Below, piece by piece: positions 1-56,532 of a DNA stretch of 64,000 bases. The notes beneath the pieces were generated by a model. That model did no database searches and was not told the DNA's origin. It worked only from the letters and a program-made list of their open reading frames with translations. A program made the position numbers and the translations under genes. The DNA comes from Candidatus Omnitrophota bacterium (GTDB lineage Bacteria; Omnitrophota; Gorgyraeia; Gygaellales; Profunditerraquicolaceae), in contig JACQXK010000032.1 of NCBI GenBank assembly GCA_016208765.1, forward strand, positions 54,385-118,384. The letters are read 5' to 3'. Positions within the stretch are counted from its first letter, which is position 1; each line of letters opens with the position of its first letter.

Positions 1-328
1 AATAAAAATAGCCTGCGAGGAAATTTATGATACCATCAGGCAGAAAGAACGCCGTTTCAGGATTTATCCTTTCAGTAAACCCCCTCAATTCCACTTAAGC
101 GTTGCTATGGAAGCATGGCTGCGCGGTACAAGCTTTGATAAAACTATCCGCCTTACCGATACTGATGAAGGGGAACTTGTGCGCTATTTCAGGATGAGCG
201 TGCAGATCCTGCGCGAGATTTATGCCTCTGCTGCCTGTTCGCAATCCTTAAAAGACAGGATCAAAGAGACAAACCGCATGATTAACCGCGATGTAGTTGA
301 TGCAGAAAAACAACTACGCGAAGGTTAA
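1..328 (+). CDS. 3' end of a Ski2/HelY-like DEAD/DEAH helicase (DSHCT C-terminal domain); gene starts upstream of the window
   Basis: The reading frame is open from base 2 of the window. The tail ...AMEAWLRGTSFDKTIRLTDTDEGELVRYFRMSVQILREIY... matches the DSHCT domain of Mtr4/Ski2/HelY helicases. The stop codon ends at 328. Confidence 0.5.
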   Translation, partial: IKIACEEIYDTIRQKERRFRIYPFSKPPQFHLSVAMEAWLRGTSFDKTIRLTDTDEGELVRYFRMSVQILREIYASAACSQSLKDRIKETNRMINRDVVDAEKQLREG

Positions 329-627
329 ACCCGCGGGTTAAAATCCCACCGGCATTCCTGCATACATACGCAAAGCCTGCAGGAAAGTTAATCTTTGTCT
401 GTGTTGAGTTCTTCTTACTTTTCTGTGTGCGTGACGATGCAATCTTCTCATTTTACCTCCATTACTAAGCTTGTTTTAAGCTTGTTAAAAACATCCCTGT
501 ATACATTCTTATAACATTTAGAAATCCAACTGGCTTTTTATGACGAGTATACCTTCGGGTTGCCTTACGCACTCCCCTATGTTGCTTTCTCATCTCTCCT
601 CCTTCCTATTGGCGTGCAGCCATGTTA

Positions 628-745
628 CACCCGGCCTTAAAGGATAGGCCGGTGTGCGCTTAGACACACTACACACCCCGCCCTATAGGATGGGCGGGTG
701 TCTTGCCTTCTGTTGCACCCAATCCTATCGGATGGATTGGTGTGC
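628..745. repeat. Three tandem ~30-nt GC-rich hairpins of shared design: stem CACCC..CC / GG..GGTGTG with a TAnnGGAT loop
   Basis: Direct reading: cacccggccttaaaggataggccggtgtg, acaccccgccctataggatgggcgggtgt and gcacccaatcctatcggatggattggtgtgc, spaced ~43 nt apart in a long non-coding gap. Confidence 0.5.
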
Positions 746-752
746 GCTTGGG

Positions 753-797
753 CGCAAAAAAAACCCTAAAGGCAAAATTCTTTAGGGTTAAAAATAA
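753..797 (-). terminator. Intrinsic terminator hairpin (ccctaaag..ctttaggg) with an 8-T tract on the minus strand and a weaker T-run on the plus strand
   Basis: Perfect 8-bp stem with an 8-nt loop. It is flanked by A8 upstream on the plus strand (T8 downstream when read on the minus strand) and by ttaaaaat downstream on the plus strand. Confidence 0.5.
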
Positions 798-1169
798 CTT
801 CCCCTTTTGGCAGCCCCTCTGCCCCCCCATATTATAGGTAAGGACAGGTAGCTTTGCCTCGCCGTAAAACTTAGCGAGTCCGCCACGTTTTGTGGCGGAG
901 CCCCCGGGTTACCCCGGGTTTGCCTTTTCAGTAGGTTCATCCCTACACCAATCGGTGTAGGGCTAAATTGTCAAAATTACAAGCTAAGAGAAGTATGCCA
1001 TATTTTTGACAAATTTCAAGGGTAAATCTTTTCTTTCTGTAACCGGTCAGTAAACGGGGGTAGATATTGTCATGCCCGCGAAATCCCCGCTTTCGCGGGG
1101 AGGCACCCAGGCGTTCCCGTAGCTGGATTCCCGCTTACGCGGGAATGACTTAGCCCAGTAACTAACCGG

Positions 1170-2135
1170 TTACTTCTTTCTCAATTTAACTTCTTTAAGA
1201 TAGTCCAAAAGTATCTTTTTATGATCAAAAGCAAAATCCAGCTTTTCAATTTCGCTTTTTTTAATTATTTTTAATCCGGCAGCATCATCTCCGGCCCTGG
1301 GATTTCCCTTAACCTTGGCAATAAAAGCTGTGCCGATCGTATGAAAACGCGGGTCGCGCTTAGGGTCAGAGTAGGTATGGAATTGCCTTAATTCAACAAC
1401 ATCAAGGTTTGTTTCCTCTTTGACCTCCCTTATCACCGCATGCTCAAGGCTCTCACCATAATCCACAAAACCACCGGGAAGCGCCAGGCCAAACGGCGGA
1501 TTACTCCTTTCAATAACAACAATCCCGCCATCCCCGCCTGCGGGCGAAGCAGGAATTTCAATAAGCGCATCAACCGTGCTAAAAGGGCCCTGCTGGAGCT
1601 TATTCACAATGTGCTCTAAATATGAAACAACGCCTTTATTAAACACATTAAATGCCTCTTTATCAAATAAACAGATAATTATTTCTTTTATTTCAGTTTT
1701 GTCTTCCCTTAAATGGCGAAAAATCTCCTGTGACATAATTTTTGCAGCTGCCAATAAAGGATACCCCCCCACGCCACAGCCTAACGCCGGAAAGGCAATT
1801 GAAGAAATCCTTAATTTTTGCGCTAACTTTAAAGCATTCCTGGCAGCATCTCGTATTTTAATTTCGTCGGTCTTATGATCAAGGCCCATAGTTGCAGCAT
1901 GAATTACATATTTTGCCTTAAGGCTTCCTGCCTGAGTTGCCAAGGCCTCTCCAATTTGAATCGGCCCTTTTTTAACAGCCTCATCCTCAATGGCTTTGCC
2001 GCCTTTTCGCTTTATGGCACCAGCAACCCCGCCGCCCATAATTAACTTATTATTTGCGGCATTAACAATAGCATCAACTTTTAATTCCGTAATATCACCT
2101 TGAACAATTTTAATTTCAGTATTATTTATTTTCAT
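1170..2135 (-). CDS. Macro domain (ADP-ribose / O-acetyl-ADP-ribose processing) fused to a C-terminal NUDIX hydrolase
   Basis: N-terminus: [34 protein letters not shown]...IHAATMG, a typical macro/Appr-1-p fold signature. C-terminus carries a Nudix box: [24 protein letters not shown]. Confidence 0.7.
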
Positions 2136-31130: not shown

Positions 31131-32405
<1,275 letters not shown>

Positions 32406-32505
32406 TTACCCACAAGGGTACACCCGCGTAATACCTTATAGGCGCGGGGTGTTATAGGGTTAGTTAAAAATCTAAAATAACTTTCTAATTATACCTTCAA
32501 AAATT

Positions 32506-42561: not shown

Positions 42562-42731
42562 TTTTTTGATTTGAATATGCAAGGAGAAGTAAAGAAATTG
42601 TTAGTTTCCAAAGAAAAACCGCAAAGCTAAGTAATTAACATTCCAGGCTTTACGGTTTTTTTGTTGCAGAAAGCAACACACCAACCTTTCACATAAGGTT
42701 GGGTGAATTGAGGGAGGTGAATTAGTAAGAA

Positions 42732-42932
42732 ATGGCAAAAGGTAAAGTTAAGTGGTTCTCGAACCAAAAAGGTTATGGCTTTGTTACAACCGAAGACGGC
42801 AAAGACGTGTTCATACACTTCAGCGCAATCAAAGGCGATGGCTATAAATCCTTGGCAGAAGGCGATGCTGTAGAGTTTGAGATAACCCAAGGCCCAAAAG
42901 GCGATCAGGCAACAAACGTTACAAAAATATAA
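42732..42932 (+). CDS. cspA: Cold-shock protein (CspA family)
   Basis: [18 protein letters not shown]... with RNP1 and RNP2 motifs. Confidence 0.9.
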
Positions 42933-52963: not shown

Positions 52964-54976
52964 TTATTCTCTAATCACCTGCCAAATTTTATCCAGATTC
53001 TTGCGCGCTTCCTCTTCCCCTCTCTTTGCAAATTCTTCTGCCCTATGCAGCTCAAGCCAGTTTAAACCAGAAGTATTCGGATGTAAAACCACATCTGCAA
53101 GCTGGGCCTCTTTAAGCGCAACCTCAGACTGCAGCACTTCAATGCTACTGAATATTATATCAAGAATATTATTTTTAAAACTATTTCTTATATATTCGCG
53201 CAGCCCAAACCAGCTTCTTTTCTTTATGTTGCCGGTAATACCGACCGAGATCTGGCCGCGAATTTCTTCATATTGGCGCAGGATATCTTGCCTTGAGGGA
53301 GTGACATTTACCGCGATAATTTTTTTCACCCCTATTTTAATTAAAGGCTCGGTAGGCAAGGGGTTAATGATCCCCCCGTCAAAAAGCATTTCTTCTTTTA
53401 TTTTAAATGGTAAGAAAACTCCCGGCATAGCGCAACTGGCCATTATCGCATCAACTAACAAGCCCTTTTCAAAAACCCGGGATTCTTTTCTTTTTACATC
53501 GGAGGCAACGATTTTTAGCGGAAGCTTTACATCATAAAAAGTTTTGTTGCCCAAGTGCCTATCCAGTAATTTGCGCAGTTTATTCCCTTTGATAAAACCC
53601 ATAAATGGCAGGGTAAAATCCAAAAGGTTCCAGATGTGCTTAGGCGCCTTAAATTCTTTAGTAATCTCAAGGATCTCTTCTGATGATTTGCCAATTGCCC
53701 ATAAGCTTGCAATTACAGAACCAATGCTTGCTCCCACGATTACATCTATAGGTATTTTTTCTTCTTCTATTACTTTCAAAACTCCAATATGGCAAAAACC
53801 ATACCCAACCCCCACCCCCAAAACCAAACCCACCATGCTTTCCCCGAGCTGGCGCGCGATCCTTCTTACAGCACGCGCATATTCGCAGACAGGCTCATCC
53901 TCAACTAACCGGTCGCAAGACTCAAGTTCAATTTTAGGAAGTGTGGCAAAAATATTTTTATTTAAAATTTCCACCTGCTCTTCATGAGTAAGCCTTGAAT
54001 GCTTGTATTCATTGATAACCACTTTTATTTTTTCTTCTTTAAAAGCAAATTCATCAACAAGCCTTTCAATTAAATGACGGGTCCTTTTTAAATCAACCTG
54101 CTCAGGGCTCGTCAAAATATGAATCACATCGGATTGATTCAGTATATTAAATATCGGCCTGTCCATCAATGAAGGAAGGTCTATGATCAAAAAATGATAA
54201 TCATTAACCAACAGGCTGATAATCCCCACGAGCCTGCGCACACAGATTTCATCTTCCGGCCTATAGTGAAAACAAACCAGGCCGATACCGGATTTAGCCT
54301 CCACCAGGAATTCTTTTACCAAATTCGGGTTATCAGCTGCCGAGTTTGACAGGTCAAGTATTTTGCAGCCGCTGAACCCTAATTTCTGCGGCAGGGTGTG
54401 AATTTTATCTAAAGGCAGGATATCAAGGATAACCACTGATTTATGCGTTTCTTTCTTGAGGCTCAACCCAAGATTCAATGCATAAATAGTTTTGCCTGCC
54501 TGAGAATATGAACTGAAAACAGAAATAATAGAACTTTCAAAAATTGTCTTCTGGTGCAGGTCTTTACGTTTAAGCCTTCGGGAAAGGGTTTTACTTAAAT
54601 CAATTGCCAGATGAGGCATCTTTCTCAAAAAATGATCAAAATCATCTTTCTTGATAAAAAGGATCACACAATCATTAATTGCCTGGGCAGTTACAGAGTG
54701 CGGCTCATTGGTTAAAAGAGAAATAATGCCGAAATATTTGGCCCGATGCAGGTATTCAAGGATTATTGCGTTACCAAAAGTATCCTTGCTTGAAATTACC
54801 ACCCTGCCGGCTAAAACACAATAAAACCCGCTTGGAGCATTGCCTTGTTCATAGATTATTTGCCCTTTTCTATATTCAAGGACCTCTGCCTTCTGGGAGA
54901 CCTGCTCCCGGTCCTCATCTGTTAGCTCGGAAAATAAGGGGATTTCCTGTAAAACAAGCTTGCTAATTTGTGCCAT
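52964..54976 (-). CDS. Cyclic-nucleotide-binding domain protein with a C-terminal patatin-like phospholipase (NTE-like architecture)
   Basis: N-terminal cNMP-binding fold (FYCVLAGRVVISSKD...). The central domain is a degenerate MinD/ParA-like region with no intact Walker A. The C-terminus carries patatin GxGxxG (GLVLGVGVGYGFCHIG) and GxSxG (GASIGS) motifs plus a catalytic Asp context (DGG). Confidence 0.7.
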   Translation of the reverse strand: MAQISKLVLQEIPLFSELTDEDREQVSQKAEVLEYRKGQIIYEQGNAPSGFYCVLAGRVVISSKDTFGNAIILEYLHRAKYFGIISLLTNEPHSVTAQAINDCVILFIKKDDFDHFLRKMPHLAIDLSKTLSRRLKRKDLHQKTIFESSIISVFSSYSQAGKTIYALNLGLSLKKETHKSVVILDILPLDKIHTLPQKLGFSGCKILDLSNSAADNPNLVKEFLVEAKSGIGLVCFHYRPEDEICVRRLVGIISLLVNDYHFLIIDLPSLMDRPIFNILNQSDVIHILTSPEQVDLKRTRHLIERLVDEFAFKEEKIKVVINEYKHSRLTHEEQVEILNKNIFATLPKIELESCDRLVEDEPVCEYARAVRRIARQLGESMVGLVLGVGVGYGFCHIGVLKVIEEEKIPIDVIVGASIGSVIASLWAIGKSSEEILEITKEFKAPKHIWNLLDFTLPFMGFIKGNKLRKLLDRHLGNKTFYDVKLPLKIVASDVKRKESRVFEKGLLVDAIMASCAMPGVFLPFKIKEEMLFDGGIINPLPTEPLIKIGVKKIIAVNVTPSRQDILRQYEEIRGQISVGITGNIKKRSWFGLREYIRNSFKNNILDIIFSSIEVLQSEVALKEAQLADVVLHPNTSGLNWLELHRAEEFAKRGEEEARKNLDKIWQVIRE

Positions 54977-56201
54977 TATTTATCGGTGGCTCAATAACCA
55001 CTCCCGTGCGGCAAACCTCTGCTAATTTTCTTGCGCTCCCCCGGACATTCCTCTTGTAATTCTGATAATCAACTTCAATAAGCCCAAAACGCGGGCCAAA
55101 CCCCTTGTCCCACTCAAAATTATCCAAAAGCGACCAATAAAGATAACCCCAGACCTCTACCCCCTCTGACATTGCCTGTGCCAAACTTTTTAAATGCTCC
55201 CGGATATACTCCCACCTCAAATTATCATCAGATGTGCAAATCCCGTTTTCAGAGATCATCACCGGCAATTTAAATTTCTTAAGTTTAACCAACAAATCAT
55301 ACAGGCCCTGCGGGTAAATATCCCAACCTAATGAATTCTTCTTTATATTCTCGTCATTAGCAGTACGCAAAAACAGATCATGAAAACCAGGGTTCTTTGC
55401 ATTTACAAGACTGCGGCTATAATAATTTATTCCGATAAAATCAAGAGAGCTTTTATTTATCGCCTGCTCAACAAACTCAAAATTAAAAAACTTGTTTCTT
55501 AGATACACCGCCAGTTTGTTAAGCCAACTGTTGTTATAAGGCACAAATGCCTGCATATTTTTGGCAAAACTGACAAAGACAGAAGGAATATTTTTATTCC
55601 TATAGATGCCGTGAATTAAATTATAAGCTTTGATGTGGCTCTTAAGAAGATTATTTTCAACTTGTTTTGCCTTCCAGGTAGATTTTTCCTGCGGTGGCCA
55701 GACTCCCATAATATAGCAGTGAGATACATAAATAAGCGGCTCATTAATGGTTATCCAAAAACGAACATCCTGAGAGAGTGCATCTACGATCTTTTTTACA
55801 TAACGCAAAAAGTAATCCTGAACTTTGTTTTTTTCCCAACCCCCAAGTTTAACAAGCCAAAGGGGGTTTGTAAAATGATGCAGCGTAACTACAGGCTCAA
55901 GGCCGCGTTCTTTTAAAGCACGGATCACCCGGCGGTAATGTTCAATTTCACTCTCTGAAAATACCCCCTCTTGCGGCTCAACCCTGCTCCATCCAATTGA
56001 AAAGCGATGCGCATTATGCCCAAGCTCCTTGGCCAAATCAAAATCCTGTTCATAAAGCTCATAATGCCGGCAGGCTGCGCCTGATTGCTCATGATTGGTC
56101 TTCTTCTCCCACTCCCACCAGTCGCAATTATTATTATTGCCTTCTACCTGATAAGAAGAAGTAGCCGCACCCCATAAAAAACCTTTTGGAAATGTTCCCA
56201 T
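54963..56201 (-). CDS. GH1 beta-glucosidase
   Basis: N-terminal FLWGAATSSYQVEG. Catalytic NEP acid/base and I(T/S)ENG nucleophile (MISENG). Confidence 0.85.
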   Translation of the reverse strand: MGTFPKGFLWGAATSSYQVEGNNNNCDWWEWEKKTNHEQSGAACRHYELYEQDFDLAKELGHNAHRFSIGWSRVEPQEGVFSESEIEHYRRVIRALKERGLEPVVTLHHFTNPLWLVKLGGWEKNKVQDYFLRYVKKIVDALSQDVRFWITINEPLIYVSHCYIMGVWPPQEKSTWKAKQVENNLLKSHIKAYNLIHGIYRNKNIPSVFVSFAKNMQAFVPYNNSWLNKLAVYLRNKFFNFEFVEQAINKSSLDFIGINYYSRSLVNAKNPGFHDLFLRTANDENIKKNSLGWDIYPQGLYDLLVKLKKFKLPVMISENGICTSDDNLRWEYIREHLKSLAQAMSEGVEVWGYLYWSLLDNFEWDKGFGPRFGLIEVDYQNYKRNVRGSARKLAEVCRTGVVIEPPINNGTN

Positions 56202-56227
56202 AGGAGTTTATTATAACACCTGAAAAT

Positions 56228-56267
56228 AAAAAATCCCAACAAAAATGTTGGGATTTTATTTTTTTAT
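56228..56267 (-). terminator. Intrinsic terminator (aatcccaacaaaaatgttgggatt) with T-runs on both strands
   Basis: 9-bp stem; a T7 run follows on the plus strand and a TTTTTATTTT run on the minus strand. Confidence 0.5.
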
Positions 56268-56272
56268 AGCGC

Positions 56273-56487
56273 CGATAAAGGTCGTTGCTTAGCTACCTTC
56301 ATCACTTCCTTCGACAACCCAGCCACCATATTACCTCTCCCGTGCCTAACTATCCCCTGCTACAGTTTCCGGATACGGCTTCGTAAGGTAATTTAGGTCT
56401 GTGGCTTTGCGCCCCCATCTTTCAATGTACGCTAAACTTCTCAGCGTATCCGCGCGAACGCACCTCGCGGAGGTTTACCTTTATCGG
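56273..56487 (-). ncRNA. Candidate structured small RNA (~215 nt) closed by a 12-bp terminal inverted repeat and followed by a terminator
   Basis: gccgataaaggt at the 5' end pairs with acctttatcggc at the 3' end. The interior is GC-balanced with several hairpins and no ORF. A terminator lies immediately downstream on the minus strand. Its identity is unknown. Confidence 0.2.
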
Positions 56488-56532
56488 CAATATAAGTATA
56501 CAATATAATTATTTCTATTTCAAGGACACAGC

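Follow-up and report, generated by a model that had tools for sequence, protein, structure and literature searches.

Introduction

Riboswitches of the c-di-GMP-I class (c-di-GMP, cyclic dimeric guanosine monophosphate; Rfam family RF01051, which forms clan CL00126 together with the c-di-GMP-I-GGC variant RF03167) usually control motility, adhesion, pilus or signalling genes, and the merRNA of Bdellovibrio is reportedly a c-di-GMP riboswitch followed by a terminator, without a downstream gene. Among non-coding repeats, classical repetitive extragenic palindromes (REPs) are conserved over their entire length, and repetitiveness is the defining feature of a miniature inverted-repeat transposable element (MITE). 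The locus considered here is a gap at positions 329–1169 of a 64-kb stretch of contig JACQXK010000032.1 from Candidatus Omnitrophota bacterium (hereinafter, the window; G + C content 40.7%). It lies between two convergent genes, namely, a plus-strand helicase gene with a C-terminal DSHCT domain, which ends at 328, and a minus-strand macro-NUDIX gene (2135..1170). Very probably, the gap holds a small minus-strand operon, comprising a c-di-GMP riboswitch and two small genes, beside an unrelated insertion. A single minus-strand transcription unit (1019..317) would include a promoter, the aptamer, a terminator, three hairpins and the two small genes.

By its macro-NUDIX orthologs, the source organism is assigned to Candidatus Omnitrophota. 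The helicase and macro-NUDIX genes are only ~20–60 bp apart in several related genomes (L003, L004, L006, L008 and L011; designations of this form refer to the other contigs and loci compared), and thus the long gap in the window is real and lineage-specific. No riboswitch was found between the convergent genes in these five loci. In 12 distinct other contigs, a promoter, the leader box TTGACAATTT, a c-di-GMP-I aptamer and a terminator precede genes of the same small-protein family (hereinafter, the cassette); the closest cassette relative of the window is L116 (genome GCA_020063045.1). Literature searches returned no description of this operon.

The c-di-GMP-I Aptamer and Its Junction Expansion

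The aptamer (RF01051) was found on the minus strand at 934..806, with an Rfam score of 38.1 bits against a gathering score of 35 (E = 7 × 10−4 for the whole window and 1 × 10−5 in a local search) and with all core segments aligned. The 5′ core AAAGGCAAA (927..919) is followed by the helix P2 (CCCGGG-GUAA-CCCGGG, 918..903) and, further on, by the junction GCAAAGC (857..851), P3 and the 3′ core GGGGCUGCCAAA. The core segments AAAGGCAAAC, GNRA-capped P2, GCAAAGCUACCUGUCC and GGGCAGAGGGGCUGCCAAA are intact and near-identical to those of L083 (60.5 bits), and P3 is near-identical to P3 of L083 and L102. In the Rfam alignment, AAAAGGCAAAC, GCAAAGC and GGCUGCCAAA of the window fall at the consensus positions of the ligand site, whose nucleotides presumably correspond to G20, A47 and C92 (Vc2 numbering). 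P2 covaries between loci: the stems are CCCGGG/CCCGGG in the window, CUAGCA/UGCUAG in L116, CUAAGG/CCUUAG in L083, CCAGGA/UCCUGG in L096, CCCGAG/UCGGGU in L092 and UCCGCC/GGCGGA in L100, each with a GUAA cap; a GNRA loop is present in every locus, and it is GUAA in all but one. The window aptamer, a predicted binder of c-di-GMP, is a further member of the known c-di-GMP-I class, and it is its junction expansion that is new.

This expansion lies between P2 and GCAAAGC (899..858, minus strand; a 45-nt insert in the Rfam alignment) and consists of two hairpins, UCCGCCAC-AAAAC-GUGGCGGA and CUCGCU-AAGUUUUAC-GGCGAG. Compact orthologous aptamers of homologous cassettes, most of which occupy the corresponding genomic position, reach 58–70 bits; the low score of the window aptamer is due to the expansion. 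In L116 and L102, different two-hairpin expansions occupy the same site of aptamers with intact cores, and both aptamers score below the Rfam gathering score. The occurrence of expansions together with intact cores in three lineages (window, L116 and L102) suggests that the expansion is tolerated and does not reflect decay.

The riboswitch is the main element of the gap and had been overlooked in the original prediction, which described the region as gene-free and highly structured and offered a novel small RNA (sRNA), a 3′ untranslated region (UTR) element of the macro-NUDIX gene or a cluster of REP-like repeats as its possible identities. The structures listed in that prediction were all found to be present. 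The Rfam search of the region proposed at that time yielded the RF01051 match, which accounts for the core of the region. Resemblance to RNase P RNA, transfer-messenger RNA (tmRNA), 6S RNA or signal recognition particle (SRP) RNA had not been seen by eye, and Rfam likewise gave no match to any of them; at permissive thresholds over positions 250–1300, nothing credible besides the riboswitch was detected, and no transfer RNA (tRNA) or tmRNA was found in the gap. Of the identities offered, the REP-like option is supported for three hairpins (see below), whereas the novel sRNA is not supported, because Rfam gives a known cis-regulator and two conserved small proteins are encoded past the terminator. 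Nor is the gap gene-free, as two minus-strand open reading frames (ORFs) with strong Shine–Dalgarno (SD) sites (593..465 and 451..338) belong to a conserved protein family.

A hairpin very similar to one half of the window expansion (879–899) was observed directly before the SD of the first gene in other cassettes, with the sequence CCGCCAC-N5-GUGGCGG in L086 (~2513–2535) and L100 (~447–469) and as CCCCGAC...GUCGGGG in L099 (~541–562). A second c-di-GMP-I riboswitch is present in the window at 56310–56489 on the minus strand (42.3 bits, with a large insert); it is followed by a terminator (~56255..56224) and by a gene (56201..54963) whose product resembles a glycoside hydrolase family 1 (GH1) beta-glucosidase, as read from the translation only.

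Promoter, Terminator and Proposed Switch Logic

A sigma-70-type promoter was detected by the promoter scan at 992..1019 on the minus strand, with TTGAAA, a 16-nt spacer and a TG-extended CATACT. Most of the homologous cassettes in alignment A7 share the −35 CTTGAAAA and −10 TGCTATACT with unchanged spacing, and the window promoter agrees with their consensus, CTTGAAAA-N17-TGCTATACT. The 397-nt minus-strand leader folds far better than its shuffles (z = −6.4). Between the −10 hexamer and the aptamer lies the box TTGACAATTT (965..974, minus strand), which is near-invariant in 9 of 10 cassettes in the same alignment and has an inverted partner at 1001–1015 in the window (inverted repeat I2), where it overlaps the promoter spacer; the box may be an operator. 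A mini-palindrome, CCCTACACC-GATT-GGTGTAGGG, follows at 941..962 on the minus strand (inverted repeat I3) and is missing from L116; it resembles the base of the hairpin family described below (ACACC...GGTGT) without the inner stem and loop. Two further promoter candidates were rejected, a plus-strand site at 807–835, taken as a chance match, and a second promoter formed by the leader-box TTGACA and TACTGA, the spacing of which is not conserved in the window or L100.

An intrinsic terminator was located by the terminator scan at 756..789 on the minus strand, with a 10-bp stem AACCCUAAAG/CUUUAGGGUU followed by U8. The strong terminator hairpin with a T tract noted originally is this same structure, a 10-bp hairpin at 762–789 followed by T8 on the minus strand. 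The terminator starts 17 nt past the aptamer end and on the same strand, which identifies it as the expression platform of the riboswitch. Nearly the same terminator was found in L086, L099, L101 and L116.

Segment UUUGCCUUU (776..768), which covers loop and 3′ arm of the terminator, can pair with the 5′ core of the aptamer, AAAGGCAAA (927..919), and the unconstrained minimum-energy fold of 937..752 contains the AAAGGCAAA:UUUGCCUUU antiterminator helix. This fold (−76.2 kcal/mol) and the one with the terminator forced (−75.8 kcal/mol) are iso-energetic. In L086, L099 and L101, the complementarity of core and terminator is significant (reached by at most 0.3% of shuffles); that of L096 is weaker (3%). 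Since the terminator loop and 3′ arm can pair with the aptamer core, the element is likely an OFF switch, and a response in which c-di-GMP leads to termination is favoured with moderate confidence. Transcription would begin at the promoter (1019..992) and pass through the leader into the aptamer. Without c-di-GMP, UUUGCCUUU would pair with the 5′ core AAAGGCAAA, and the resulting antiterminator would let RNA polymerase read on, whereas with c-di-GMP bound the aptamer core would be locked, the terminator would form and transcription would stop. The read-through RNA would carry three hairpins (747..624), then the genes of the 42- and 37-residue proteins. At the operon end, the terminator scan revealed a terminator-like hairpin (317..335, minus strand), which overlaps the stop codon of the convergent DSHCT helicase gene.

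A Family of Small Basic Proteins

Small gene 1 (465..593, minus strand; from the ORF list) encodes a protein of 42 residues with an isoelectric point (pI) of 12, MRKQHRGVRKATRRYTRHKKPVGFLNVIRMYTGMFLTSLKQA, and is preceded by the SD AGGAGG at 603..598 (AGGAGG-agag-ATG). Small gene 2 (338..451, minus strand) encodes a protein of 37 residues, also with pI 12, MRRLHRHAHRKVRRTQHRQRLTFLQALRMYAGMPVGF, and has the SD GGAGG at 460..456 (GGAGG-taaa-ATG). The products, designated ORF1 and ORF2, respectively, are paralogous, and neither contains an acidic residue. Residues shared by the two are encoded by synonymous codons (AGA/CGT for Arg, TTT CTA/TTC CTG for Phe-Leu and GGG/GGA for Gly).

An exact look-up of the two proteins returned no called gene, and a word-indexed homologue search with these two proteins alone returned nothing; the family was found only by an exhaustive HMMER search. 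With a two-sequence profile against 1.84 billion representative proteins, this search gave 19 matches at E ≤ 0.001 (down to 4 × 10−10), of which 17 were short full-length proteins (35–65 aa as called). A profile made from these matches recovered 53 proteins in the clustered database (E down to 8 × 10−15), all annotated as hypothetical or without an informative name. Consequently, the family comprises more than 50 basic proteins of 35–43 aa with the consensus M[KR]R.HRK..RK.RR..HKK.LSFLEALRLYAGMPVG[FVI]. The family hidden Markov model (HMM) scored ORF2 at 69.9 bits and ORF1 at 63.2 bits in hmmsearch, both being among the 19 sequences used to build it; ORF2 is a canonical member and ORF1 a variant with a different tail. 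The ortholog of ORF1 in L116 (P0001) is 62% identical, and between ORF2 and its L116 ortholog 12 codon differences are synonymous only and 6 are non-synonymous. On this sequence evidence, both small genes are real and belong to a conserved family, which, on the evidence seen, appears confined to Omnitrophota.

The AlphaFold2 model of ORF2 consists of two short helices only, a predicted basic helix at residues 3–16 and a second one at residues 23–30 (mean predicted local distance difference test, pLDDT, 72), and is too small for a fold search. The small proteins would most likely bind nucleic acid or the ribosome.

The Cassette in Other Contigs

Of the 12 cassette aptamers in other contigs, 10 scored 58–70 bits, and the two expanded ones were below the gathering score. 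Where the upstream sequence reaches far enough (eight contigs), macro-NUDIX precedes the small genes, with a DUF192 gene sometimes intervening, and in five of these eight they stand just before a convergent DSHCT helicase gene. The species representatives closest to the window by macro-NUDIX (L003–L016) have no cassette, and two solo small genes (L095 and L098) were found without a riboswitch.

Many cassettes also contain an unannotated protein of ~90 aa (THRVVTFLTREELDFLDKL...LFSTG; L101 2722–3090, L086 2546–2815, L092 2731–3000, L094 36–290 and L096 2203–2480), the N-terminus of which suggests, by eye, a ribbon-helix-helix-like fold. In L101, this protein runs on into RRKFIR...(~20 aa)...ENISEQG, which resembles the c-di-GMP-binding motif of PilZ, and the contig ends there. 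This protein is a candidate binder of the box TTGACAATTT in those cassettes. A second unannotated protein, of ~65 aa (KGGV..F.IEK...LYRGM....RIVC.K.Y), is encoded between the ~90-aa gene and the small basic genes in L086 (2817–3020) and L094 (305–520). Pfam gave no match for either protein, and the window cassette contains neither of them. In L096, three near-identical 47-nt tandem repeats were observed at 2050–2190, between the riboswitch terminator and the first gene; each carries a variant hairpin, CACCGGCGC-AAUUCAUCAUAA-GCGCGGGUG, and their position corresponds to that of the three hairpins of the window.

The Dispersed Hairpin Family

Between the terminator and small gene 1, the three consecutive hairpins of one design reported originally were recovered at 624–659, 670–705 and 712–747, with covariance-model scores of 47–49 bits. 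On the minus strand, hairpin 1 (712..747, loop AUCCGAUA, 48.7 bits with model R1) is 100% identical in L116, hairpin 2 (670..705, loop AUCCUAUA, 47.6 bits) is conserved in L116, and hairpin 3 (624..659, loop AUCCUUUA, 48.7 bits) is absent from L116, where alignment A8 has a 52-nt gap; the array thus counts three copies in the window and two in L116. The shared design, drawn from six copies in three genomes, is ACACC-N5-AUCCNAUA-N5′-GG(G)UGU with a bulged G. In the six-sequence alignment, 98% of the cells are paired and 6 of the 10 pairs show compensatory changes; none of 500 shuffles reached the covariation score or the pairing percentage, and 1 of 500 reached the compensatory-pair count. G-U pairs occupy only 1 of 105 paired cells. 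A 53-aa ORF at 669..830 (minus strand) was rejected as an artefact of the hairpin repeats.

A census of the window with covariance models and filters off gave five copies at three loci, namely, the array, 42674–42709 and 32416–32455. The copy at 42674–42709 (plus strand) is sense-oriented and precedes the SD of a cspA-like cold-shock gene (42732–42932) by 5 nt; that at 32416–32455 is antisense and belongs to the 5′ UTR of an enolase gene (32393..31131, minus strand), with ~12 nt between it and the SD. The long 5′ UTR of the cspA-like gene also contains a terminator-like hairpin at ~42610–42665. Eight further copies were found in four Omnitrophota contigs (L083, L094, L006 and L116; ~170 kb of Omnitrophota loci), in both orientations and partly in tandem, whereas ~485 kb of control loci, nearly all of them from other phyla, contained none. 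Sense copies occur in the window array, before csp and in L083 and L116, antisense copies before enolase and in L094 and L006, and tandem arrays of 2–3 copies in the window, L116, L083 and L006. A hairpin-pattern scan of viral contigs gave 11 matches, all of which were discarded as chance (only 1–3 of the five inner pairs complementary). No description of this hairpin family was found in the literature.

The dispersal, mixed orientation, tandem arrays of variable copy number and pairing that is almost exclusively Watson–Crick point to REP-like palindromes acting at the DNA level, which agrees with the REP-like option of the original prediction for the three hairpins. These features point to a palindrome family that would have accumulated in the leader as a presumably mobile repeat, and the array may secondarily stabilise the mRNA.

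The 135-bp Element at the Macro-NUDIX 3′ End

Positions 1039–1173 are occupied by a 135-bp element without coding capacity (inverted repeat I1), the terminal repeats of which are GTAACCGGTCAG.../...CTAACCGGTTAC. As had been described, inverted repeats close the domain, with 11 of 12 pairs formed by the outermost nucleotides; it encloses two GC-rich stem-loops and overlaps the macro-NUDIX stop codon, TAA (1172..1170), which lies inside the right-hand repeat. Over 20 nt, the repeats are 80% complementary. It is flanked by an exact 8-bp direct repeat, TTCTTTCT, at 1031..1038 and 1174..1181, a putative target-site duplication read from the sequence. The fold z-scores of the region 1030–1180 are −5.4 (minus strand) and −4.9 (plus strand). 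The element is absent after macro-NUDIX in all orthologous loci examined, and L116, in which the flanks (…CTTAAA… and AAAGATTTACCCTTGAAA) match, represents an empty site. At window position 1123, within the element, two independent short-read contigs break off, which hints that the element is repeated.

On account of its terminal inverted repeats, the flanking 8-bp direct repeat and its absence from the closest locus, the element fits a MITE-like insertion, putatively mobile and unrelated to the operon. Such an insertion at the macro-NUDIX 3′ end would now supply the stop codon of that gene. It also explains the domain better than the 3′-UTR element suggested originally, although the location at the 3′ end of macro-NUDIX was correctly recognised.

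The site after macro-NUDIX holds differing repeat-rich or palindromic inserts in other Omnitrophota (L016 4800–5500; L012 and L013), and apparent small protein genes are found there in L005 and L009 instead. This position appears to be an insertion hot spot.

Discussion

Several observations weigh against individual parts of the interpretation given above and must be considered together with the alternatives they favour. The aptamer of the window is barely above the gathering score, 3 bits over it as compared with 58–70 bits in compact orthologs, its 45-nt expansion adjoins the ligand-binding junction, and the two relatives with a similar expansion (L116 and L102) fall below the threshold. A decayed riboswitch, in which the expansion has disabled the aptamer, the terminator is constitutive or inactive and the small genes are outside c-di-GMP control, nevertheless seems quite improbable, because all core segments are intact and near-identical to those of the high-scoring L083, the three expanded aptamers retain differing expansions at one site along with intact cores, and the bistable terminator/antiterminator folds have been retained. 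As regards switch logic, L090, L092, L097 and L100 show no antiterminator complementarity, or none that is significant. In addition, a hairpin at the operon end of L117 (300–335, GCCCUAAGGC-UUUU-GCCUUAGGGC), downstream of a small-protein gene, is similar to the riboswitch terminator CCCUAAAG...UUUGCCUUUAGGG; it is thus possible that the terminator belongs to a reused type of hairpin, which somewhat weakens the antiterminator argument. The OFF logic may be limited to a single clade; alternatively, the complementarity may have been inherited without being functional. As to protein function, no relative of the small proteins was found in Pfam, NCBIfam, PHROGs, PADLOC or PDB. For the 135-bp element, no second copy was detected in the window or in any fetched locus by self-BLAST and pattern searches, nor by an exact-core scan of viral contigs, and if the element is removed along with one copy of the repeat, macro-NUDIX has no stop codon nearby. 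It is thus conceivable, though rather unlikely, that 1039–1173 is a functional structured RNA (a macro-NUDIX 3′-UTR element or terminator, or an independent sRNA) and not the remnant of a mobile element. In favour of such an RNA, it folds much better than shuffles on both strands, it overlaps and follows the macro-NUDIX stop codon and would hence be transcribed with that gene, and no second copy that would prove it repetitive was found. The absence of the domain after macro-NUDIX in every orthologous locus examined, the closest included, speaks against such an RNA, as do the exact direct repeat flanking its terminal inverted repeats and the lack of a U-tract after the closing helix. Moreover, no Rfam family was matched at threshold, the best being a transposon-associated motif, Transposase-2 RNA (RF03015; 26.2 bits against a gathering score of 42.7, 1137..1079, minus strand).

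The hairpins admit more than one explanation. Conservation across genomes extends to the loop AUCCNAUA and the helix base ACACC/GGGUGU, with covariation in the inner 5 bp. Identity between the window and L116 is ~93–100% over two hairpins and the spacer joining them, as compared with ~80% for the ORFs. Every copy seen is located in non-coding sequence ahead of a gene, most of them within ~25 nt of an SD (5–25 nt for csp, enolase, the L006 gene and the small ORFs). Such conservation and placement agree with selection for an RNA function no less well than with selfish repeats. It is therefore possible, if somewhat unlikely, that the hairpins, those of the csp and enolase leaders included, are RNA elements under selection, i.e., protein-binding sites, 5′-UTR stabilisers or translation modulators, and the binder could be the arginine-rich small proteins encoded just downstream, by analogy with lambda N/boxB. 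The family is also enriched in the cassette (5 of ~16 cassettes carry a hairpin or variant), and the modelled basic N-terminal helix of the small proteins would suit such a role. The near absence of G-U pairs is unusual, however, under constraint on RNA alone, copy number differs between close relatives, most cassettes have no hairpins, and the mixed orientation with respect to mRNA (antisense in L094, L006 and enolase) would not be tolerated by a loop-specific RNA-binding protein. The more specific proposal, that the Arg/Lys/His-rich proteins are RNA-binding effectors of the ACACC-N5-AUCCNAUA-N5′-GGGUGU hairpins in their own leader and before the csp and enolase SDs, with c-di-GMP setting the peptide level, must be considered highly unlikely. 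Least probable of all is a plus-strand sponge RNA of the CsrB/RsmZ type with loops UANNGGAU and GGA motifs in hairpin loops. GGAU occurs in all three plus-strand loops and AGGAU in two of them, but no plus-strand promoter lies upstream of 624–747 and no terminator downstream, the sole promoter-like site (807–835) being downstream of the array. The plus strand offers nothing else to which the array would be antisense, and the array forms part of a well-supported operon on the minus strand; the family is found in both orientations, and other cassettes do without the array. REP-like palindromes are accordingly preferred for the hairpins, as is a MITE-like insertion for 1039–1173.

Thus, a seemingly gene-free gap becomes a testable unit, a predicted c-di-GMP riboswitch over a conserved pair of tiny proteins in uncultivated Omnitrophota. 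Known kinds of element account for most of the region, and the link between c-di-GMP and a new small-protein family can be tested. Proteins of this type (35–43 residues, pI 12) are mostly missed by gene callers and are named in no database; as predicted targets, they would add a new class of riboswitch-regulated genes and would provide a first handle on the targets of c-di-GMP in ultra-small Omnitrophota bacteria. Because the two-hairpin expansion pushes close relatives under the Rfam gathering score, expanded c-di-GMP-I riboswitches are under-annotated. A smaller question concerns the hairpin family, in which a conserved loop and a covarying stem stand beside the csp and enolase SDs. If the small proteins did act on these hairpins, c-di-GMP would set a peptide regulator of a post-transcriptional regulon in Omnitrophota, an N/boxB-like system under second-messenger control.

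Comparison with Known Systems

What is new here is the regulated tiny-protein family, the aptamer junction expansion and the hairpin family, the riboswitch class itself being known. The 135-bp element resembles a MITE in its size, lack of coding capacity, terminal inverted repeats and exact 8-bp direct repeat, as well as in its strong self-folding and the empty site in the closest relative, and differs in that no second copy or parent insertion sequence was found in the available sequence. The hairpin family shares with the REPs and bacterial interspersed mosaic elements (BIMEs) of Proteobacteria imperfect palindromes of ~30–36 nt with a bulged base, dispersal in non-coding DNA in both orientations, variable tandem arrays and almost only Watson–Crick pairs. 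Unlike them, it conserves the helix base and an 8-nt loop while the inner 5 bp differ between copies, its copies lie upstream of genes, mostly near an SD, rather than after genes, and its density seems modest (~3 loci per 64 kb). By analogy only, the small proteins may be compared to arginine-rich-motif peptides (lambda N/boxB and HIV Tat/TAR) in their very small size, basic helical N-terminal half and location beside conserved-loop hairpins, whereas they have no sequence similarity to them and the hairpins occur in both orientations.

The aptamer and terminator of the window would seem to lie in a gene-free gap, as merRNA reportedly does, if the small ORFs were missed; two conserved translatable small genes after the terminator make it an ordinary cis-regulator and not a stand-alone RNA. 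With the c-di-GMP-I (GEMM-I) class, the window aptamer shares the core sequence, the P2/P3 architecture, the GNRA-capped P2, the G before the GC pair, the A after GC in GCAAAG and the C in UGCC, and an intrinsic terminator directly after the aptamer as expression platform. It differs from that class in the ~42-nt two-hairpin expansion between P2 and the GCAAAGC junction and in its predicted targets, a pair of basic proteins of 37–42 residues.

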